In this document: positions 35,404-47,831 of the stretch, one piece after another
Layout of the letters: each line of letters opens with the position of its first letter
Numbering within the stretch: position 1 is the first letter of the stretch
Assembly (NCBI GenBank): GCA_963744715.1
Contig: CAVUUR010000007.1
Span: 104,770-168,769 of the forward strand
Source of the DNA: an uncultured bacterium
GTDB lineage: Bacteria > Babelota > Babeliae > Babelales > JACPOV01
Direction: 5' to 3'
DNA length: 64,000 nucleotides
Made by a program: the position numbers and the translations under genes
Notes under the pieces: model-generated
What the model saw: the letters and a program-made list of their open reading frames with translations, nothing else
What the model was told of the DNA's origin: nothing
Database searches by the model: none

Positions 35404-36422
35404 ATAACAAAAAAACACTGTGCCTAGTAGCCGGTAGATCTGGCGGACATATTATTCCCTGTTTAACACTTGCTGAAAAATATTTACAGCAAAAACAATA
35501 TACTGCTTTTATTTTTTTTACATCAAAAAAAAATCTTGATCACCGTATCATTGCTAACTACTCTTGTATTGATCAAATTATCTCATTATCTCTTGAAAAT
35601 ATTCCTTATAAGCAACCATGGAAGTATCCTTTATATATAATTTCTTTTTTATGGTCATGTTTTGTTAGTATTTATAGATTGTGGGAAATAAAACCTGAAA
35701 AAATTATTAGCACGGGTGGCTATATAGCACTTCCTGTTTGTATTGCAGGAAGGTTATTAAAAATACCTATTGAGCTTTGGGAATTAAATGCTATCCCCGG
35801 AAAATCCGCACTGTTATTAGCGCGTTTTTCAACAACTATTAACACCTGTTTTAAAGAAGCGCAACATTATTTTCCATTTGCTACCTGCACCATGAATGAA
35901 TATCCCATACGATTTGAAAAGCATAGTTCTCTTTCTAACAAAACCTTCACTAAGCCTATAATTATATTAATATTAGGTGGATCGCAAGGATCTCAATTTC
36001 TCAATACACTTATGCAAAAATGGCTTATTACTGCACATGATCTTTTTTCGCATATTCATATCATTCATCAAACGGGTAATAATTTTTTGGATGCAGTAAA
36101 AAAATTCTATCGTGATAACGATATTTCAGCAGATGTTTTTGACTTTGACGATCAACTCTATCAGTACTATCAGCAAGCTACCATCGTTATTTGCCGAGCC
36201 GGAGCGGGAACGTTATTTGAAACAGTTTTTTTTAAGAAACCTTGTATTACGATTCCTCTTGAGACCAAACAAACCAATCATCAATATGCCAATGCCTGTT
36301 CGTTGGCTGAGCAATACCCTAATATTATTACTGTTTTTCGCCAACACGATATCGATGTTAATTCTGCATCATTTTTTTCAACGTTACGAAATTACATCAC
36401 GAAAGCCATTGAGACGGCTTAG
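35382..36422 (+). CDS. murG: MurG glycosyltransferase (likely start 35400)
   Basis: GRSGGHIIP, STGGY, ELNAIPG, LGGSQGS, HQTG, CRAGAGT, HQYANA. Confidence 0.94.
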   Translation: MEATFIMNNKKTLCLVAGRSGGHIIPCLTLAEKYLQQKQYTAFIFFTSKKNLDHRIIANYSCIDQIISLSLENIPYKQPWKYPLYIISFLWSCFVSIYRLWEIKPEKIISTGGYIALPVCIAGRLLKIPIELWELNAIPGKSALLLARFSTTINTCFKEAQHYFPFATCTMNEYPIRFEKHSSLSNKTFTKPIIILILGGSQGSQFLNTLMQKWLITAHDLFSHIHIIHQTGNNFLDAVKKFYRDNDISADVFDFDDQLYQYYQQATIVICRAGAGTLFETVFFKKPCITIPLETKQTNHQYANACSLAEQYPNIITVFRQHDIDVNSASFFSTLRNYITKAIETA

Positions 36423-38340
36423 CGCCAAGCCCATAAATATAATAATTAATACCTGCTTTGCGTATAATAGGATAATTTTCGATACTAATCGGCCCAGAAA
36501 TAAACATATCGAAAATATGTTGTCCTTGACTTGAAAAAGTTCTTCCAGATGGCTGAGCAGTCGGATTAACAAATAATCCTTTATTGCCTTTTTGTTGCAT
36601 ATATTCTTTGATAGTAGCGGTAACGGCATTTTTATTAGTTGGATATGAGCTAATCCATTGGGGGATTTTTTCTGCTATTTCTTTCTGAACCGCATCTTGC
36701 AAGGTAATCTGGCCCGCAGAATTTTTTATGTAATAACTATCATCAAAATAAAATGCATTAATTAATTGATCAATTCTCAATTCAGCTGGCTCCACATAAT
36801 AATAAAACGTATCTTCCGTGATACCATGCGGTGTAAAATAATCGGCTAATAGCAGATACCCAATAACACCAGAATTATCTTTTCCCTTCGTATCATCAAT
36901 AATATTATTTTTTTTTGTCTCCATTAATCCATGTTTTAGCGATTGCGTAATAGCGGTAGAAATTGATTCCGGTGCTATTTTACCACTACTTAATCTATCA
37001 AGAAATTGTTGAGCTTTTTTATCATCTTGCGTATTTAATAGCACACCGTATAACCATGCTTCTTTTTCTGCAATTTGTGGGCGAATAAGTTCAAAATCGA
37101 GCACAGATCCCCGAGCAACTTTTTTTACTACCGTAAAATCATGTGTTTTATAGGTAACCCACAACGTTTCTGGCGTATCAAAAGGAATAGCAGAATAATC
37201 TTCTTTTGCTTGATTTTCTGACATTTTTTTATCAATTGCTTCTGCTTGCGCTGCCGATTGATACCAAATATGGCACTCAACTGGATTAATATCGCGAACA
37301 CGTTCAGTCGGCTGCTTAAAATTACCAACAGAAAGTCCCTGCATACCAATAGATAATGCGCCTTTATTATCGTATACCTCATAGGTATACATCATAGAAC
37401 CGGCAGGATCATATTTTTTTGTTTTTTCATCAAATGAAACATTGGCTATTCCCTCGGAAGCAATCGGTAAATAACCAATAACGTTGTCTTTATGTGCAAA
37501 CACAAATGCACGCTTTTCATCTTTTGCTGGCCTAATAGAAGTTGGCTTACCCGTCGTTGACTGTAATAAACTGAAGGATTCCGGCTCTAATGAGACCGTA
37601 TACGATTTTTCATCTTTTGAAAATGTTAAAGTAACATCATTGGCTGTGGAGCTATTATAAAAAGTGCCAATGAATTCTTGCGTTGTTGCTTTTATACCTA
37701 AGTACTCACCTTTAACCTGTCCTGCATCAGTATAGGTTCGATAATAATAAATATTATCATCATGAGCTGGCCATGGATAAATATCTTGGCGCAATAAACT
37801 ATATTTTTTCAATTTTTCTGTTGTAACGATCCCTCCAAAAAGTCCTTTAATTATTGCCTCGCCTCCACCACCAATATTCAAATTTTCAGTTCCTTTTGGG
37901 CTGGTAGAATATTGTTGAATATCAGCTCGTCCAGCATCAGCACAAAGCCACACGCTAATGTATAATTGTTGTTTATAAAAAGTTGTTCCGCTGGTATCAT
38001 TCGGCATAACAACCGCACTGTTTGCAAGATTTCCTGAAAAATCTGCCCCCAATACCGGTGTGACATGTTGAATAGCAACGAAAATAGGTGCCGGCGCATC
38101 ATTCCATGCTAGTAAGCTATAATGATAGTCGGCAGTAACAAAACCAAAACTTTGTCCCATTCCTTTAATAAAACCTGATGCACCATCCCATGTATTTTGC
38201 GCCGTCGTAACTACCTGATTTTTTATGTCATTCCATTTTTGATCCACATCACGAGAATAAATGGAAACACTGTGTATTAATAAAAAGAAATATAACATTG
38301 TTAATATTTGTTTCATAATAACTCCTTTTTGGGAAAACAT
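36397..38340 (-). CDS. Large hypothetical exported protein
   Basis: 647-aa ORF; AGGAG RBS before MKQIL; signal peptide; no recognised domain. Confidence 0.75.
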   Translation of the reverse strand: MFSQKGVIMKQILTMLYFFLLIHSVSIYSRDVDQKWNDIKNQVVTTAQNTWDGASGFIKGMGQSFGFVTADYHYSLLAWNDAPAPIFVAIQHVTPVLGADFSGNLANSAVVMPNDTSGTTFYKQQLYISVWLCADAGRADIQQYSTSPKGTENLNIGGGGEAIIKGLFGGIVTTEKLKKYSLLRQDIYPWPAHDDNIYYYRTYTDAGQVKGEYLGIKATTQEFIGTFYNSSTANDVTLTFSKDEKSYTVSLEPESFSLLQSTTGKPTSIRPAKDEKRAFVFAHKDNVIGYLPIASEGIANVSFDEKTKKYDPAGSMMYTYEVYDNKGALSIGMQGLSVGNFKQPTERVRDINPVECHIWYQSAAQAEAIDKKMSENQAKEDYSAIPFDTPETLWVTYKTHDFTVVKKVARGSVLDFELIRPQIAEKEAWLYGVLLNTQDDKKAQQFLDRLSSGKIAPESISTAITQSLKHGLMETKKNNIIDDTKGKDNSGVIGYLLLADYFTPHGITEDTFYYYVEPAELRIDQLINAFYFDDSYYIKNSAGQITLQDAVQKEIAEKIPQWISSYPTNKNAVTATIKEYMQQKGNKGLFVNPTAQPSGRTFSSQGQHIFDMFISGPISIENYPIIRKAGINYYIYGLGAKPSQWLS

Positions 38341-38556
38341 CAGTTAGTGTATCAAACTATATCAGGCAATTGTTATGATATTCGATAGTTCAATAATACT
38401 TTTTATATTATCTTCTAATACTTTAATTATTGTAAAAAAATTCTATCTAAAAAAATCTCTTTAAAAAAAATAATTTCTCTTGATTTGCTCAATCGTTGTG
38501 CTAGGTTCTAAAAAATAAAATGAAGCACAATGTTTAGTAAAAAAAGAGAGTGAGTA

Positions 38557-40590
38557 GTGATGAAGAGATTCTTTTTTGTATGCATGATACTTTTTACACC
38601 ATTCAGATTTTTTGCGCATTCCAGTACCGATTATATACCCAAGTATGGTAATAACAATTATCCACAAATAACTGGGCACACTTCTACATCTTATCAAAAA
38701 AATAATGGAAATGTTCTTTTACAAGCTCTTAAAAAAATAGCAGAGCCCGCAGCTGTTCTAGCTTTTTTAGTATGCTGTGCATACGAATGGTGGAAGGGAG
38801 AAAAAGAATTAAAAGATCCGTATAAAAAAGATCGGAATTATGATAAAGAACTGCGCAATCGGTTAGAGCAAGAATATCCTAAGCTGCTTGCACTTGCTCA
38901 TACATCTAACTATGATAGCGTACCCCCTCATGTAATCAAGCAGCGATTGAATAGTTTAATAGTGCATACTAATAATCATGCTACGTATGAAATCAGTACA
39001 AAAACATTCTTGTTATCTGCATCAGCACAACAACTATTAGGCGAACATAATCTTCCAATCAATACATACCAAACATTGCGAGGATCGACCTTGCAGCATA
39101 CTATCCATACGGAATGCTTGCAGGTTATTGATAGTATTGCAGGTACGAGCGTAACGCAAACCAATAATTTTCTAATGTCATTCGTTGAACTGAGCAGACA
39201 ACATAATTATGCCGGCATGGTTACCGATGCACTTAACCTCCTTGATGTGTGTTGGTCTTTTATGCGATCGACTGCGCTCGCCATCGGCGAAGGTATTTTG
39301 GAAGAAATCAATGCTACTAAAACTGCAATAAGCAACGCAATTACTAATCCACAAGGTGCTGTGATTGAATTAGTAACCAGTGCAAAAAATACTGCCTATG
39401 GTTTAATGCACGCTATTAAAAAATATCCAGCATTATTTTCTGTTGTAGTACTACCAGGCCATGAACCATTACTTGCTGCAGGTGAATTAGTTAACTTGGG
39501 AAATTCTTTTCGACACTATTCTATTAATAATTCTGAAGAATTATTAGGAATAATAGCATCGACACAACATACCCTTAATAATTACAAAAGTCCTCCTCTG
39601 GCATTTGCACAAAGCATAGAAAATACCGCGCATTGTTTAGTTCGTTTCATTAAACAACATCAATCACTTATTTCGATTTTACAAGAGAATTATAAGAAAC
39701 AAGCATTAACCCTCACTCAAGAAGTGAGCCGAACCGCACATGCATTACAATTGTATTGCGTCAATAATCCGTATGATGCACTCAAACAGAGTTCACGTTT
39801 GGTTACACAAACTGTTCTGTTGCCTGCAACAGCCCATTGTTTGAATAAAATTTTTACGGCTGCGTATCATAAGATTCCTGCCTATGTTGAAAAAATAAAA
39901 CAAGGCAGCAGCGCACTCACCGCACAAGAAGTACCGGTTGCTGTTGCATTGCAAACAACTGAAATTATTACACCAGCTGCATTACAAGAAGAATTTGTGG
40001 TGTTAGCAAATACGGTTCAAGAAGAAACCGCTGCTGGATCACTCGTCAGTAGTATTCCATTAGTTCAAGACCTTGTAACAAATTTAACGGTGCTTTTAGA
40101 ACCAGTGAGACAAAAATTGCCGCAGTTCAAACAAATGTTTGATAATACACGAAAAGGATTTGGTGAGTTTGCTACTAAATATATTAAAATTCCTTATAAT
40201 CATATTTTAGGTATTGATTGGACTATCGATGCAAAGGGCATAGCAAAGTGGTTCGGGTTTCATCATGACCTTATGGGCGCTATTGAAAAAAGTAAGCTTG
40301 TGCAATTCGTGAATAAAGTTGTACACAGTAACGGATTCTACACTGCAGATGTTATTATTAATGGTATTCAACAGCCTAAAACTTTTTTCCCGCAACATTG
40401 GTCGCACGAAAAGGTAATTAGTAAAGTTCTGGAGGCATATGACAATTTCATCAAGAATGGCGCTAAAAATTACAAATTAAATAAAGATGGCAAATATATT
40501 TTAACCGGATTCATTGAGGAAGGCATAGAAATCAAAATGTATATCACTAAAAAAGGTCAAATAACAACCGCTTACCCAATATTGACCTGA
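38557..40590 (+). CDS. Polymorphic toxin: signal peptide, unrecognised helical N-terminus and C-terminal bacterial EndoU nuclease
   Basis: C-terminal HILG...GFHH...KTFFP.HW...EAY...G..I......GQITTAYP EndoU signature with His-His-Lys triad. Confidence 0.85.
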   Translation: MMKRFFFVCMILFTPFRFFAHSSTDYIPKYGNNNYPQITGHTSTSYQKNNGNVLLQALKKIAEPAAVLAFLVCCAYEWWKGEKELKDPYKKDRNYDKELRNRLEQEYPKLLALAHTSNYDSVPPHVIKQRLNSLIVHTNNHATYEISTKTFLLSASAQQLLGEHNLPINTYQTLRGSTLQHTIHTECLQVIDSIAGTSVTQTNNFLMSFVELSRQHNYAGMVTDALNLLDVCWSFMRSTALAIGEGILEEINATKTAISNAITNPQGAVIELVTSAKNTAYGLMHAIKKYPALFSVVVLPGHEPLLAAGELVNLGNSFRHYSINNSEELLGIIASTQHTLNNYKSPPLAFAQSIENTAHCLVRFIKQHQSLISILQENYKKQALTLTQEVSRTAHALQLYCVNNPYDALKQSSRLVTQTVLLPATAHCLNKIFTAAYHKIPAYVEKIKQGSSALTAQEVPVAVALQTTEIITPAALQEEFVVLANTVQEETAAGSLVSSIPLVQDLVTNLTVLLEPVRQKLPQFKQMFDNTRKGFGEFATKYIKIPYNHILGIDWTIDAKGIAKWFGFHHDLMGAIEKSKLVQFVNKVVHSNGFYTADVIINGIQQPKTFFPQHWSHEKVISKVLEAYDNFIKNGAKNYKLNKDGKYILTGFIEEGIEIKMYITKKGQITTAYPILT

Positions 40591-40604
40591 AAATAAGGAA
40601 ATCA

Positions 40605-40985
40605 ATGAATAATTTTTTTAAACTAATGCTGACAGAAAACTATTATTGTTATGATGATGCCGATACCGTAGAGATGTGTATTTTAAGCCGCTTTTTAACA
40701 TCTGATGTTTACTGCTTTGGCTCACGGTATAAAGAATGGGCACTTTTTGATACTCAATATACTAAGTATGGAGGTAACATAACTTTTCTTGAAAAAAAAG
40801 ATGGATACATTATTATCAGTGATCAATATTCTGAAGAACCGGATGGGGGACCTTATTTTCCTATCGAACAACCGGAGTTTGTAAAACTTCTTGATGAATG
40901 GGAAAATATTTGCAAACAAAACCCTAAACCACAAGAAATTCTCATTACGTATGATGGCAAGCATTTCACGTTTGCTTGTAAATAA
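40605..40985 (+). CDS. Cognate immunity protein 1
   Basis: 126-aa acidic ORF right after the toxin with AAGGA RBS; two paralogs downstream. Confidence 0.8.
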   Translation: MNNFFKLMLTENYYCYDDADTVEMCILSRFLTSDVYCFGSRYKEWALFDTQYTKYGGNITFLEKKDGYIIISDQYSEEPDGGPYFPIEQPEFVKLLDEWENICKQNPKPQEILITYDGKHFTFACK

Positions 40986-40986
40986 T

Positions 40987-41202
40987 CCTAAAACTTTTTT
41001 CCCTCAACATTGGCCACGAGAAAAAGTGATCAGTAAGATTCTTGAAGCCTAGGACCATTTCATTAAAACTGGCGCAAAAAATTACAAATTACAACCTAAT
41101 GGTAAATATTTGGTGACAGGATTCACTGATGAAGGTATAAAAATAGAAATGTATATTACTAAAAAAGGGCAGATAACAACCGCTTACCCGGTACTAGAAT
41201 GA
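40987..41202 (+). pseudogene. Orphan EndoU toxin tip fragment 1
   Basis: PKTFFPQHWPREKVISKILEA*DHF...ITTAYPVLE*; no start codon; in-frame TAG at 41050. Confidence 0.85.
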
Positions 41203-41212
41203 GGATAATTTA

Positions 41213-41596
41213 ATGAAAAAAAATTATTTAAAAATTGTTACCCATGGTCTTTCTAGTTACGAACATACAGATACTAGGGAAATGTGTATACTTGGATGTT
41301 TTTTAACATCAGATGTTTATTGTTTTGGTCCATCAACGTATAAAGAATGGGCACTTTTCGATACTGAATATGCTAAGTATGGAGGCAATATAACTTCTCT
41401 TGAAAAAAAAGATGGATACATTATTGTCAGTGATCAATATTCTGAAGAACCTGATTGGGGACCTTATTTTCCCATCGAACAATCAGAGTTTGTAAAACTT
41501 CTTGATGAATCGGAAAAGATTTGCAAACAAAATCCTAAGCCACAAGAAATTCTTGTTACGTACGACGGAAAACATTTCACGTTTGCTTGCAAATAA
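41213..41596 (+). CDS. Orphan immunity protein 2
   Basis: Close paralog of 40605..40985 (FLTSDVYCFG, YKEWALFDT, YGGNIT, YDGKHFTFACK); GAGG RBS. Confidence 0.82.
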   Translation: MKKNYLKIVTHGLSSYEHTDTREMCILGCFLTSDVYCFGPSTYKEWALFDTEYAKYGGNITSLEKKDGYIIVSDQYSEEPDWGPYFPIEQSEFVKLLDESEKICKQNPKPQEILVTYDGKHFTFACK

Positions 41597-41627
41597 TTAT
41601 AAACCTACTTAACTATTAGGATTACCA

Positions 41628-41999
41628 ATGGGTAACGATATTTCTAGATGGTCAGGATTTTATCATGATTTTATGGGAACCGTTGAAAATAGTGGACTGG
41701 TTCAATTTGCTGAAAAAGTAGTAGATGAGCATGGATTTTACACGGCAAAAGTTACCATGGATGGTATAAAAAAAATGCGAACCTTTTTTCCTCAGCATTG
41801 GACACCCGAAAAAGTAATTAGTAAAATTCTGGAAGCTTACGACCACTTTACTAATAATGGTTCAAAAAATTATGAGCAGCTTCCTAATGGCACTTATCTA
41901 GTTACTGGATTAATTGAAGAAGGTATAGAACTCGAAATACATATAACTAAAGAAGGACAAATGACATTCATATATCCATTATTGTATAAGGGTAGTTAA
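41628..41999 (+). CDS. Orphan EndoU toxin tip 2, predicted catalytically dead
   Basis: Aligns to the toxin C-terminus; GFHH>GFYH, KTFFP>RTFFP, first His absent; AGGA RBS. Confidence 0.75.
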   Translation: MGNDISRWSGFYHDFMGTVENSGLVQFAEKVVDEHGFYTAKVTMDGIKKMRTFFPQHWTPEKVISKILEAYDHFTNNGSKNYEQLPNGTYLVTGLIEEGIELEIHITKEGQMTFIYPLLYKGS

Positions 42000-42523
42000 T
42001 GAAAAAAAATTATTTAAAAATAGCTCTTAAAGGAAATCGCTATAGTTATAAAGAAGCAAGTATTCAAGAAATGGCAATGCTTGGATGTTTTTTAACTTCT
42101 GAAGTCTTATGTTTTGGATCAACCTTTAAAGAATGGGCTCTCGATAATAATGACTTAGGTAGTTATGGAGGAAATATAATCGAACTTGAAAAAGAGGATA
42201 AATATATCGTTCTCAGTGAACAAATGTTTCAAAAAGTTAAAAAAGGGCCTTATTTTGCTATACAACAGTCGGAATTCGTTAAGCTTCTTGAAATATGGGA
42301 AAATATTTGCAATCAAAACCCTAAACCAGAACAAGTTTTTATTATCTATGATGGCCAACAATTAACGATTTCTCATAATGCAGAAATAATATGGACAAAC
42401 AATACACCTTCCAGGCAAAGGAGATTAACCGTAGGCCGTTTGTTAAATTGGCTACTCGTTGCTATGTTTTTTATGTATGAAGGAAAGCATATAATCCAAC
42501 GTTTGTTCTTCAGTCATGGCTGA
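41999..42523 (+). CDS. Orphan immunity protein 3, with C-terminal extension overlapping cmk
   Basis: Paralog (LGCFLTSEV, FKEWAL, YGGNI, EFVKLLE.WE); TAATG coupling to upstream tip. Confidence 0.8.
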   Translation: MKKNYLKIALKGNRYSYKEASIQEMAMLGCFLTSEVLCFGSTFKEWALDNNDLGSYGGNIIELEKEDKYIVLSEQMFQKVKKGPYFAIQQSEFVKLLEIWENICNQNPKPEQVFIIYDGQQLTISHNAEIIWTNNTPSRQRRLTVGRLLNWLLVAMFFMYEGKHIIQRLFFSHG

Positions 42524-43142
42524 ATTATCAACAACAATAGCATTGGTTGGAATAACCAATGGATCAATGGCACGATTACTATCGCGCTCATCACGCTCCT
42601 TAACTGCAGCGCAAGCTTCGTTGATGGATACAACAAAACCTCTGAGTTTTTGATCATGTTGCCATCTTAACGCACGCACTTGCAATGATGCTGTTAAAAA
42701 AAATTTTATCTGAGCATTGGGGAATACTACCGATCCCATATCACGACCTTCTACCACAATATCGTGACTATCGGCTATAGTTCTCTGTAATGCATATAAA
42801 GATTTTCTAACCAACACATTAGTAGCAATGAGTGATGATTGTCTATCAATTGATGCCGATTTTAAAAAAGGAGTAATTTCTGAATTATCAAAAAAAATCT
42901 TGCCGCCATGTGCACTATCGGGTAGATAAACAAAATGATCCGCTTGCAATACTTTTTCAATATCATCTGCAGTTACCTGCGTTAACCGTTCTTCTGTGTA
43001 CTGATAATACGTTGTAAAAACATACGGCCAAAGCTCGAAAAAGTAAACCACTGCTTAAATAATGTATATGCAGCACTCCCGCTAATCTACGAGCTATTGT
43101 CGATTTACCACTTGCGGTTGGGCCGTCGATAGTAATAATCAT
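42452..43142 (-). CDS. cmk: Cytidylate kinase (frameshifts near 43040-43080)
   Basis: [15 protein letters not shown] from 43142; [13 protein letters not shown] and [13 protein letters not shown] in the downstream frame. Confidence 0.9.
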
Positions 43143-44966: not shown

Positions 44967-46811
44967 TTAGCTTCCAAACTCGAATTTGTCTTGCTCTATA
45001 CGTTCTTCAATGAGTTCCAAAAACAAATCATTATGCATCATTACATTAAGTTGTCCCACTAATGATAGCTGCTCAAATTGGTTCAAAGAATAGTTAAAAT
45101 TAAAGGTACTGCAGTATCCCTCATCAAGACATTCTTGTACATTAAATTCCGAGAGATTTAATTTTTCAATTTGTGCAGCAAGTTTTGGATCCTCTTGGGC
45201 ACGCGTAATAAGATCATCATCTTTAAGGAAATTAATATATATAATAATTGGAGCATTATTACTAGATGATCGATATACCTGCACGGTTTTATCACTCTTT
45301 TCTTCATCTTTTGCATAGGTAATCTTGTACACACGTTCAAGGTCCGCGAATGCTTTTTTTAATTCATCAGCACTTTCTACATTGCTTGATCCATCACCAA
45401 CAAAAATAATATCTAATTGTCTATCGGGCCTAAATAAAGGTCTCAGTGGAATATTATAGGCTATTCCTGCATCGATAAAGGTTAAGAGATCACGATCATG
45501 CAACCAGCTTCCAACTCCTTCATAGCCTTTAAACGGATTATTAATCGACGCTGGCGCTGCACGTTTTTTTCCTATTCTTGTATCACCTAAACTGATAAGA
45601 ACGCGTTCTACCAATGCATTCTTCATCCTCTGAAAAATTGAAGGATTTTCGGACAGGGCAACGACTTTTTCTTCATCCCCCTCTTGCTCATCCTGTACAA
45701 CCTCAAGTAATAGCTCTGCACCTTTCTTATCGAGGCCATCTCCTAACATTATTCTTTTAAGATCGTTAAGATTAACCGCAAATGCAGATCCAAAAATACC
45801 CATTAAAAATCCAAAACTTTGTTCGGGAGCAAAATCTTGCGATTTTCCCGCATTAAAAGATCTACCAAATGCAAAAGCAGGTAATGCTATATCCAATTCC
45901 AGATTCCTGATTTCTTCAGGATTAAATTCGTACCAATTATACATATATACATGTTCCGCCAAACTATGCATTGAAACTGCTGTATAAATAGGCCAAGGCG
46001 CCGCACCTGATTTAATATGAAAATATTGATCAGAAAGATGTTTTCTCTGTTGATAAGCCCCAAAATCCGATAGTAAAGCATGCGCGAGTAGTGCGCCGTA
46101 AAAATCCACAGAACTTATCGGTTGTCCAAAAACAACTTTAGGAAAAATAATATCATTGGCTACACGATCTTTACTAAAAGATAAAATATTATTTTTACTA
46201 ACCGGGTTAAAAATATCGACTTCTATTTTTTGTTTGAGTTTATTATTAAATGCCTCAACAGATAATGACCGTTCAGCCGACTGCATAAATACATAAGGGC
46301 CAATCCACCAGGAAGAACCTGAAAGGCCAACCATATATTGTGCTGCATCAAAAATACCTAGCTCCTCAAACCCTTTTAGATAAGCGCTGGTTAATATCAT
46401 TGCTCTATAGCCACCACCACTAAATACAAAACCTATTCTTGGTATTGCATTATGGGGTATTTGCAATCCCGTATATTTTTGCAAAGCTATTCTCGTTTTT
46501 TCAAGGCGATTACTAAGGAATTCTCCTTCCAATGAATATCCTGGATCAAGTCTTTTTGTATTTGCATACAATGCAGCGGGCCTATTACGATTTGGGTCTT
46601 TTGCCATGAGCTGTTGTATGACATTTTCCTTGAATTTATATACTAATTGCAGTACGTGCTCAATGTCTTCTAAACGTATTTTACTAAGGCGTTCTAAACT
46701 ATTTTCAATTAATGTATCGCTAAGATCTTTTGAAATACTTTGTTGAATATAGGTCCAACGTACAAGAACAAAAAACGCAACACCGCTTAAAAAAATTATT
46801 CTCTTTTTCAT
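44967..46811 (-). CDS. cPLA2/phospholipase B-type (PLA2c) lipase with N-terminal anchor
   Basis: FSGGGYRAM, GLSGSSW, PWPIYTAV, WYEFNP, DAGIAYNIP. Confidence 0.85.
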   Translation of the reverse strand: MKKRIIFLSGVAFFVLVRWTYIQQSISKDLSDTLIENSLERLSKIRLEDIEHVLQLVYKFKENVIQQLMAKDPNRNRPAALYANTKRLDPGYSLEGEFLSNRLEKTRIALQKYTGLQIPHNAIPRIGFVFSGGGYRAMILTSAYLKGFEELGIFDAAQYMVGLSGSSWWIGPYVFMQSAERSLSVEAFNNKLKQKIEVDIFNPVSKNNILSFSKDRVANDIIFPKVVFGQPISSVDFYGALLAHALLSDFGAYQQRKHLSDQYFHIKSGAAPWPIYTAVSMHSLAEHVYMYNWYEFNPEEIRNLELDIALPAFAFGRSFNAGKSQDFAPEQSFGFLMGIFGSAFAVNLNDLKRIMLGDGLDKKGAELLLEVVQDEQEGDEEKVVALSENPSIFQRMKNALVERVLISLGDTRIGKKRAAPASINNPFKGYEGVGSWLHDRDLLTFIDAGIAYNIPLRPLFRPDRQLDIIFVGDGSSNVESADELKKAFADLERVYKITYAKDEEKSDKTVQVYRSSSNNAPIIIYINFLKDDDLITRAQEDPKLAAQIEKLNLSEFNVQECLDEGYCSTFNFNYSLNQFEQLSLVGQLNVMMHNDLFLELIEERIEQDKFEFGS

Positions 46812-47054: not shown

Positions 47055-47831
47055 ATGAATCATGGTTACAAAAAAAGCTTATTACTAACGATAGTTAATT
47101 ATTTTATGGTATCTCTTCATTGCTATGCAATACCGGAACATGCCGAATCAAAAGATTTTGTTTATCTTGACCAGATAGATCCAACAATTCTTGTTTCTCT
47201 ACGGTATAATACCGATGAAAATTTTGTGGGAACAGCTGTTGATGGTTATAAAAAATCAGTTGTAATTCTAACGAAAAAAGCAGCTGAGGCCTTAAAAAAT
47301 GTACAGGAAGAAGTTCGTAAGGATGGCTACTGTTTAGTTATTTATGATGCATATCGCCCACAAAAAGCGGTTGATCATTTTGTACGATGGAGCGCGAACG
47401 CTACGGAACAATGCAAAAAAGATAGTTATTACCCTTATGTAAATAAAGCTAAAACCTTTGAACTTGGATACATAGGGGAACGTTCAGGGCATAGTAGAGG
47501 AAGCACGGTGGACCTAACGCTTATTAAATACGGTGAAGTTCCTCATGCACTTCAAGAATCAAAACGTACCCTATTAGATGGCCGTTTAATTACATTCTTG
47601 GATGATGGCACGGTCGATATGGGATCTTCATTTGATTTATTTGATGAAGCTTCACATAGTGAAAACAATCTTATTGAAGAATCATACAAGGAACATAGAG
47701 TCTATTTAAAAACGGTTATGGAAAAGCATGGGTTTAAAGCTTACTCCAAAGAGTGGTGGCATTTTACCTTACAAGATGAGCCCTTTTGTGCCAATCAAGA
47801 TGCTAGTTACTTTAATTTTGACATAGAGTAA
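47055..47831 (+). CDS. ddpX: D-Ala-D-Ala dipeptidase (M15D, VanX/DdpX)
   Basis: YDAYRP, SGHSRGSTVD, DMGSSFD, EWWHF; signal peptide. Confidence 0.92.
   Translation: MNHGYKKSLLLTIVNYFMVSLHCYAIPEHAESKDFVYLDQIDPTILVSLRYNTDENFVGTAVDGYKKSVVILTKKAAEALKNVQEEVRKDGYCLVIYDAYRPQKAVDHFVRWSANATEQCKKDSYYPYVNKAKTFELGYIGERSGHSRGSTVDLTLIKYGEVPHALQESKRTLLDGRLITFLDDGTVDMGSSFDLFDEASHSENNLIEESYKEHRVYLKTVMEKHGFKAYSKEWWHFTLQDEPFCANQDASYFNFDIE

Follow-up and report, generated by a model that had tools for sequence, protein, structure and literature searches.

A probable polymorphic ribonuclease toxin–immunity locus and its carrier family in the phylum Babelota

We analyzed a 64,000-nucleotide stretch of contig CAVUUR010000007.1 from an uncultured member of the Babelota (assembly GCA_963744715.1; hereafter the window), in which the locus at 38,557–42,523 encodes a 677-residue protein ending in an EndoU-type ribonuclease (RNase) tip, followed by small open reading frames (ORFs) for predicted immunity proteins and by further pieces of tip. 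The protein belongs to a family that is very likely a polymorphic toxin–immunity system, and the window locus is probably one copy of an antibacterial, kin-directed polymorphic RNase system found across the phylum Babelota (Dependentiae/TM6); most of the doubt about this reading concerns target and route. As judged from sequence, the features expected of polymorphic toxins are present, namely a constant N-terminus joined to variable tips, a downstream immunity gene that covaries with the tip, and extra cassettes. An earlier note on this DNA had proposed a lineage-specific polymorphic toxin class, and the spread of the core, the variety of the tips and the abutting immunity genes support that proposal.

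Family core, tip exchange and covarying immunity genes

A search with residues 1–530 of the window protein returned only two paralogues, and the family emerged through genome searches and profiles. Matches of weak relatives to residues ~83–287 yielded a 16-row profile of a core of ~200 residues. This profile matched 107 of the 261 genomes of the phylum (Ca. Babeliales/Babelota), including 79 of 189 high-quality genomes and 74 of 145 genera, with up to 12 matches per genome. At 50% identity, the protein clusters that it matched numbered 966, with 655 of them at E ≤ 1e-10; the best 150 of the 966 were examined as sequences. All 11 distinct core proteins with an organism-named source came from Ca. 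Babeliales, in agreement with the earlier assignment of the window to a Dependentiae parasite. A GTDB-wide species scan with a closer sub-alignment gave 12 loci, six labelled Dependentiae/Babeliales, five 'uncultured bacterium' and one Pseudomonadota; the contig with the last title has 35% GC and a typical family locus, and is probably mislabelled. From these matches, the family is likely restricted to the phylum Babelota, although a feature search with part of one relative also gave two unnamed short-protein clusters of other phyla (see below).

The conserved core residues were largely polar (R130, Q180, H184, E186, N217, D230 and C232); apart from C232, conserved in 79% of rows, these residues together with G176 and G246 were conserved in 89–96%. 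Pfam gave two sub-cut-off matches to residues 1–530 (E 0.03 and 0.28) and no match over the cut-off to the core of 144 relatives, NCBIfam gave none for the toxin, and the best PHROGs match among 16 cores had an E-value of 0.053. In the libraries tried, the N-terminus thus matched no known delivery domain. The earlier statement that no delivery motif can be recognized holds for the window protein but not for the whole family, a few members of which have a Hint domain. Likewise, the delivery region drawn earlier at residues 25–530 does contain a shared carrier, but the shared part consists of the core (residues ~90–290) and helices up to residue ~455. Between signal and core the sequence varies (201 regions in 60 clusters, the largest with 96), and six proteins contained two cores; long members with two core copies were seen as L036, L057, P0003, P0004, P0007, P0016, P0020 and P0024. 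The Hint domain lies between signal and core in three sequences (L073, L076 and P0130, two of them probably the same protein), and its position directly after the signal peptide suggests self-processing in this subgroup. The literature searched, with subscription papers and supplements outside its scope, contained neither the carrier and its phylum-wide spread nor a paper joining Dependentiae with polymorphic toxins, and the word 'toxin' is absent from PMC12172432 and PMC6561590. The carrier family is apparently undescribed; the kind of design is already known.

Tips were compared in 152 core-bearing proteins, of which 127 extended at least 190 residues past the core. Clustering of the last 100 residues of these 127 gave 32 tip clusters, a few of them made up of truncated proteins, and the homologues evidently do not all carry the same tip. 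A Pfam scan of the 144 among 149 new representatives that reach 300 residues placed a named domain at the C-terminus of 40: EndoU in 16, Ntox17 in eight, Ntox35 in seven, Ntox21 in five, DUF4258 in two, and Cytotoxic and Ribonuclease in one each. The remaining 104, some of them truncated, had no Pfam name there. By these comparisons the family holds about 25–30 unrelated tips, including EndoU, Ntox17, Ntox21, Ntox35, barnase-like and colicin-E3-like ones.

On a tree of 125 core rows no fewer than 74 changes of tip label were needed, where 31 is the lowest possible number and shuffling gave a mean of 96; for 104 rows the nearest core carried a different tip. Among 229 proteins we found 87 swap pairs with an identity of 70% or more across 250 residues or more, which then diverged before both C-termini; in one example the carriers are 94% identical and the tips unrelated. 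A TPEG-like motif was present in 116 of 224 tails, in degenerate form in the window protein, and in 83 of the 87 swap pairs, those with the motif assigned, the break lay 4–78 residues (median 32) past it. These comparisons show that tips, together with their immunity genes, are swapped by recombination just past the TPEG motif.

The DNA surveyed for immunity genes was a hand-picked subset of the core matches, mostly the strongest, with 106 core ORFs (99 unique); five with short tails were set aside, leaving 94 loci. At 92 of these a same-strand ORF of 55–420 residues begins −46 to +45 nt from the toxin stop, compared with an abutting same-strand ORF after 100 of 258 long background ORFs. The earlier note had expected homologues with differing C-terminal domains, each followed by a small gene, and this is the pattern observed. 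The abutting genes of the 92 loci formed 32 clusters, the tips 25. Locus pairs sharing an immunity cluster numbered 397, and 391 of them shared the tip cluster too (shuffled mean 43, maximum 84); the immunity family of the window followed 26 of 28 EndoU-tipped loci. By this measure the immunity gene family tracks the tip family. Further downstream, more immunity-like sequence was present in 49 of 89 loci and more tip-like sequence in 20 of 89, some of it being the next full-length toxin.

Two individual loci are recorded here for their layout. At L052:3272–8549 about seven small immunity-like genes, of which three belong to one family, stand after an Ntox17-tipped member. At L042:3572–6690 a member whose tip is apparently cut short is followed by a 401-residue ORF, which we take to be transposase-like, with a probable immunity gene beyond it.

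The EndoU tip, its immunity proteins and the window locus

Pfam EndoU_bacteria (PF14436) matched residues 567–675 of the toxin (E 4.6e-13, 50.1 bits, cut-off 25.3). The tip holds H549, H569, K608 and T609, the His-His-Lys triad plus Thr, which bears out the earlier description of a C-terminal EndoU domain with an intact triad; among 20 family EndoU tips the Lys column varies. Sequence searches of the PDB with the tip, the core, a tip alignment and an immunity alignment gave no credible match, and the best matches, to CFAP115 (E 0.001) and glutamate dehydrogenase (E 0.004), were judged to be due to chance.

Modelled together, the tip and immunity protein 1 reached a complex score of 0.86 in all three runs, against 0.00 for the best of three controls. 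Among 157 solved complexes, 116 attained a score of 0.86, against 2 among 215 mismatched pairs. The runs agreed in at least 89% of contacts, with a predicted local distance difference test (pLDDT) of at least 91 for the partner. The modelled interface spans H549, H569, K608 and T609, and the nearly invariant N58 of the immunity protein lies at its centre, facing K608, T609 and H569. This modelling, which the earlier note had suggested as a check, supports, without demonstrating, binding of immunity protein 1 over the tip active site.

The region downstream of the toxin is a tandem repeat of tip-end and immunity sequence (Table 1), in an ORF layout whose coordinates agree with those drawn earlier. 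The three small proteins are paralogues, 52–78% identical, and have no Pfam match over the cut-off; immunity proteins 1 and 2 are 78% identical, with a ratio of nonsynonymous to synonymous divergence (dN/dS) of 0.19. The final ~48 residues of the 174-residue ORF have no homology to the two other immunity proteins, and this tail overlaps the 3′ end of cmk on the opposite strand. All tips at the locus are EndoU. The unstarted fragment has neither catalytic histidine, and in the 123-residue tip (PF14436, E 3.6e-11) the first His is missing and the columns of H569 and K608 are occupied by Tyr and Arg. Since neither retains an intact triad, the tail of the locus is a series of immunity variants accompanied by decayed tips and not a stock of new toxins. 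The earlier description of a toxin with orphan cassettes stands in that extra tips and immunity genes are present, but the tips are degenerate EndoU copies and the immunity genes are all paralogues; a local reservoir of different toxins was accordingly rejected.

Table 1. Features of the toxin–immunity locus (window coordinates).
Feature	Position	Strand	Basis
Full-length polymorphic toxin gene, 677 aa, GTG start	38557..40590	+	ORF call
Signal peptide-like start, Sec-type, aa 1–~20, without lipobox	38557..38616	+	Sequence inspection and crude hydrophobicity rule
Conserved family core, aa 90–288, helical domain	38824..39420	+	Profile, alignment, model of aa 88–262
Long amphipathic helices past the core, aa 289–454, candidate membrane-entry region	39421..39918	+	Alignments, model
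Degenerate TPEG equivalent, aa 455–458, marker of carrier/tip boundary	39919..39930	+	Alignment to family TPEG
EndoU-type RNase tip, aa ~538–677	40168..40587	+	Pfam PF14436; residues H549, H569, K608, T609
Predicted cognate immunity protein 1, 126 aa, without named family	40605..40985	+	Abuts toxin; family covaries; complex model
Unstarted C-terminal half of EndoU tip, 72 codons, in-frame TAG at 41050	40987..41202	+	Homology
Extra immunity paralogue 2, 127 aa	41213..41596	+	Homology
Orphan EndoU tip, 123 aa, degenerate active site	41628..41999	+	Pfam
Extra immunity paralogue 3, 174 aa, homologous part to ~42376	41999..42523	+	Homology

The genome of origin (1.26 Mb in 12 contigs, 86% complete) contains the toxin–immunity–fragment–immunity unit (window ~38467–41590) three times, in unrelated neighbourhoods and at 84–86% nucleotide identity. 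The toxin protein has two ~87%-identical paralogues there, and at both paralogous loci an EndoU tip fragment stands at the same place after immunity 1; one copy has a stop a few codons ahead of the tip end. Synonymous divergence among the three paralogues was 0.02–0.19 over residues 1–89, 0.20–0.37 over core and helices (0.20–0.32 over the core alone), and 1.03–1.27 over the tip. The high tip values against low carrier values therefore point to older tips having been recombined onto younger carriers. With dN/dS of 0.13–0.25 in core, helices and tip (carrier 0.18–0.25), all three parts are under purifying selection alike, and positive selection on the tip was rejected (dN/dS 0.13–0.19). The genome also contains two distant family members of 647 and 666 residues with unrelated tips, and one frameshifted member that ends in an EndoU-like tip. 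Two distant members that bear other tips lie at C7:37987–42032 and C7:81040–83949, with several immunity-like genes after each, and the last gene of the latter array is a relative of the EndoU immunity family.

No secretion-apparatus gene was present among the neighbouring ORFs, as had been noted earlier, and the site beside cmk varies among relatives. The cytidylate kinase-like gene itself (window 42452–43142, minus strand) is split over two frames into ORFs of 59 and 199 residues, compared with one ORF of ~229 residues in relatives. Genes on contig C3 of the same genome that resemble what we take to be eno, secF and rho likewise appear split; the assembly may therefore contain indel errors. 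Divergent from the toxin gene is a gene (36397–38340, minus strand) for a 647-residue protein that starts like a signal peptide and had no Pfam match over the cut-off. Farther along lie a gene (44967–46811, minus strand) whose product combines a PLA2_B lysophospholipase domain with a hydrophobic stretch at the N-terminus and is a possible host-membrane effector, and a D-Ala-D-Ala dipeptidase gene (47055–47831, plus strand).

Carrier structure, export and relation to known systems

The model of the core (residues 88–262) is helical apart from two short strands and has a pLDDT of 90.5 and a predicted template modelling score of 0.82. The ~200 residues past the core, which include an insertion specific to the subgroup of the window protein (within residues 289–454), were modelled as long helices at a pLDDT of 40–79. 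Foldseek gave no match at E ≤ 0.001 for the core model, and the best VIA match had a Z of 6.6 (root-mean-square deviation (rmsd) 3.0, 90 aligned), with none at Z ≥ 8. For a 386-residue model Foldseek gave none, and the best VIA match was a four-helix iron-binding protein (Z 8.7, rmsd 3.2, 128 aligned). Comparison of the post-core helices with the ClyA family gave Z 6.0–6.6 at an rmsd of about 6 Å, within the background of helical bundles. The modelled core fold has no clear match among solved structures, an absence that is no proof of a new fold.

The Sec-type signal named in the earlier note stands as a signal-like start, judged by sequence inspection and a crude hydrophobicity rule. This rule was positive in 80 of 91 family toxins, in 159 of 258 background ORFs and in 8 of 92 abutting downstream proteins, and a lipobox-like pattern occurred in one of the 91 family members. 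Upstream genes were not conserved (65 ORFs in 58 clusters, the largest with three), and no linked exporter was found. The genome of origin encodes two secretins in one cluster resembling a type II secretion system (T2SS), two T2SSE ATPases and two Omp85 proteins. The long secretins (L113 and L114; contig C3, 1883–10272) have 816 and 875 residues, and their cluster neighbours are presumably GspC/L/M-like. Secretins matched in 258 of the 261 genomes of the phylum, most of which had two or three matches. VipB of type VI secretion (T6SS) matched in 0 of 261 genomes, with the E. coli positive control matched. In the 86%-complete genome of origin there was no match for VirB4, FHIPEP, TolC-type OEP or VipB, and none for ShlB, for which the control was also blank. 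According to excerpts of PMC6561590, Chromulinavorax has two membranes, carries signal sequences on 44% of its genes and appears to shed outer-membrane vesicles inside the food vacuole. Given the secretins and T2SS-like genes of the phylum and these traits of Chromulinavorax, Sec export followed by T2SS-like secretion or by vesicles is plausible.

The family shares with MafB/MafI of Neisseria a signal peptide, a lineage-restricted constant region, a variable tip, a downstream immunity gene and C-terminal cassettes. In excerpts of PMC4287609, one MafB bears an EndoU RNase tip, MafB secretion depends on the signal peptide, and the outer-membrane step is independent of PilQ and MafA. Unlike MafB, the window protein lacks PF06255 (MafB-N/DUF1020), which was over the cut-off in 0 of 261 genomes (five weak matches, E 0.02–0.08; no positive control matched). 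Further differences are the absence of a conserved upstream MafA-like gene among the 65 upstream ORFs, the variable region between signal and core, the scattering of copies singly or in small arrays, and the obligately intracellular lifestyle. The same design of signal peptide, lineage-specific domain and variable tip was described by Zhang et al. (2012) for MAFB-N, Microscilla-N and APD1/APD2, with a wider spread predicted, and their Sec/T2SS class has the EndoU, Ntox17, Ntox21 and Ntox35 tips in common with the present family (excerpts of PMC3482391). The core is not among the Pfam domains, and the comparison with Microscilla-N and APD was one of published descriptions. Compared with the APD proteins, which have a lipobox and host-type effectors (same excerpts), the present family is almost without lipobox and has immunity genes.

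The His-His-Lys plus Thr arrangement also occurs in the EndoU tRNase CdiA-CT of E. coli STEC_O31 (PDB 5HKQ; H187, H204, K261 and T262 in excerpts of PMC9086364), and immunity proteins of that CdiA-CT/CdiI group cover the active site. Here, in contrast, tip and immunity protein have no sequence match to PDB chains and the immunity family is unnamed. Unlike contact-dependent inhibition systems, the locus has no two-partner secretion domain, filamentous-haemagglutinin repeats or VENN by Pfam, and no adjacent CdiB or transporter. The TANFOR toxins of Bacteroidetes likewise combine a phylum-restricted marker domain with polymorphic tips, but belong to another phylum, have another domain and are linked to type IX secretion genes (excerpts of PMC7073777). 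The family also differs from Rhs/T6SS effectors, with no RHS core, PAAR or VgrG by Pfam, and from LXG/WXG (type VII) and MuF toxins, with no such Pfam match in the window protein or 144 relatives.

Mechanism, alternative explanations and meaning

In the mechanism we propose, the toxin would cross the inner membrane by means of its signal peptide and leave the periplasm through the secretin/T2SS-like machine or in outer-membrane vesicles. The core and amphipathic helices would then bind the target cell and carry the tip into the cytoplasm, which is the least certain step. Going by what is known of the family, the EndoU tip would cut RNA, probably tRNA or rRNA, and the cytoplasmic protein encoded by the neighbouring gene would cover its active site, as modelled. 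As comparative genomics shows, tip and immunity gene are swapped together by recombination just past TPEG, and the extra immunity paralogues may protect from EndoU variants carried at sister loci or by related strains. The attack is probably aimed at other bacteria, chiefly kin, within the same protist cell or food vacuole.

Several points weigh against this account. The case is computational throughout, and the literature searched did not document how two intracellular parasites would come together. The excess of signal-like starts over background is modest (88% vs 62%) under a crude rule, and near-universal secretins say nothing specific about these toxins. The surveyed loci are related and not independent, and the count for tip–immunity covariation is therefore overstated; dereplication at 50% identity makes nearest neighbours that differ in tip seem commoner than they are, and 5 of 99 core ORFs have fewer than 190 residues past the core. 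The complex test is also passed by close cousins of the true partner, and the pass seen here may come from likeness to solved EndoU–CdiI complexes. Membrane entry by the post-core helices is structurally unsupported, and these helices are moderately hydrophobic, with a 19-residue Kyte–Doolittle maximum of at least 1.6 in 14 of 98.

The same proteins could instead be host-directed effectors. On that view the carrier would be a pro-domain for secretion or anchoring, like that of APD1/APD2 of Amoebophilus, the nucleases would attack cytosolic or mitochondrial RNA of the protist to release nucleotides or shut down the host, and the small genes would do no more than shield the producer until export. 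In favour, the Babelota live as obligate intracellular parasites, and excerpts of PMC6561590 describe Chromulinavorax as secreting many nucleases and proteases and being wrapped by the host mitochondrion; parallel copies with different tips in one genome, up to 12 matches here, also resemble the APD effectors (excerpts of PMC3482391). Yet host-directed endosymbiont effectors are, in the literature excerpts, described without immunity genes, and 92 of the 94 loci have one. The further immunity-like genes at 49 of 89 loci moreover imply that toxins arrive from relatives, ubiquitin-system and ankyrin tips were absent from the 144 proteins scanned, and a patchy presence (107 of 261) suits conflict better than a core host function, so that we regard host targeting as unlikely. 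That the carrier is a very divergent form of a known pre-toxin region, either the helical half of MafB-N or an entry region of CdiA/LXG type, seems quite improbable. The overall layout equals that of MafB, and an ESM Atlas feature search with residues 600–900 of the relative P0005 pointed to a MafB cluster at 0.88, which as a value below 0.9 counts as no more than a lead, with 8 of the 10 best family-bearing Atlas matches sharing family or clan; the same search gave two unnamed clusters of short proteins from Bacillota and Campylobacterota at 0.94 and 0.93. Against such a relationship, the window core had no Atlas match and its model no clear structural match, PF06255 stayed below the cut-off across the phylum (again with no positive control matched), 144 + 18 proteins contained no LXG, VENN, PT-TG, filamentous-haemagglutinin or RHS match, and the upstream genes fell into 58 clusters among 65.

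The locus might also consist of selfish, toxin–antitoxin-like cassettes that are never delivered, with the N-terminal part as a passenger. Such an origin would accord with the three copies of the unit in unrelated neighbourhoods at 84–86% nucleotide identity and with the variable site beside cmk in relatives. It would, however, leave unexplained a costly carrier of 450 residues under purifying selection (dN/dS 0.18–0.25), and it is countered by the signal-like start, the exchange of tips at a fixed boundary and the toxin-first gene order; we give it very little credence.

The core offers a new marker domain whose fold was modelled confidently, and the unnamed tip families with their paired immunity proteins are candidate new nucleases. 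The family is comparable to the TANFOR class, and the intracellular lifestyle adds to its interest. Babelota have genomes of ~1 Mb and few cultured members, and no description of an interbacterial weapon for them was found in the literature searched (subscription papers outside its scope). We suggest, tentatively, that core and helices form an undescribed cell-entry module that defines the main interbacterial weapon of this phylum of obligate intracellular parasites, a soluble bacteriocin-like class released via a twin-secretin machine or vesicles without type V, VI or VII apparatus. If so, it would enforce the exclusion of superinfecting rivals where parasites compete for a single host cell. 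That at least 41% of Babelota genomes have the family, and many of them more than one copy, implies that bacteria often come into conflict inside protist hosts, an idea that is now testable.

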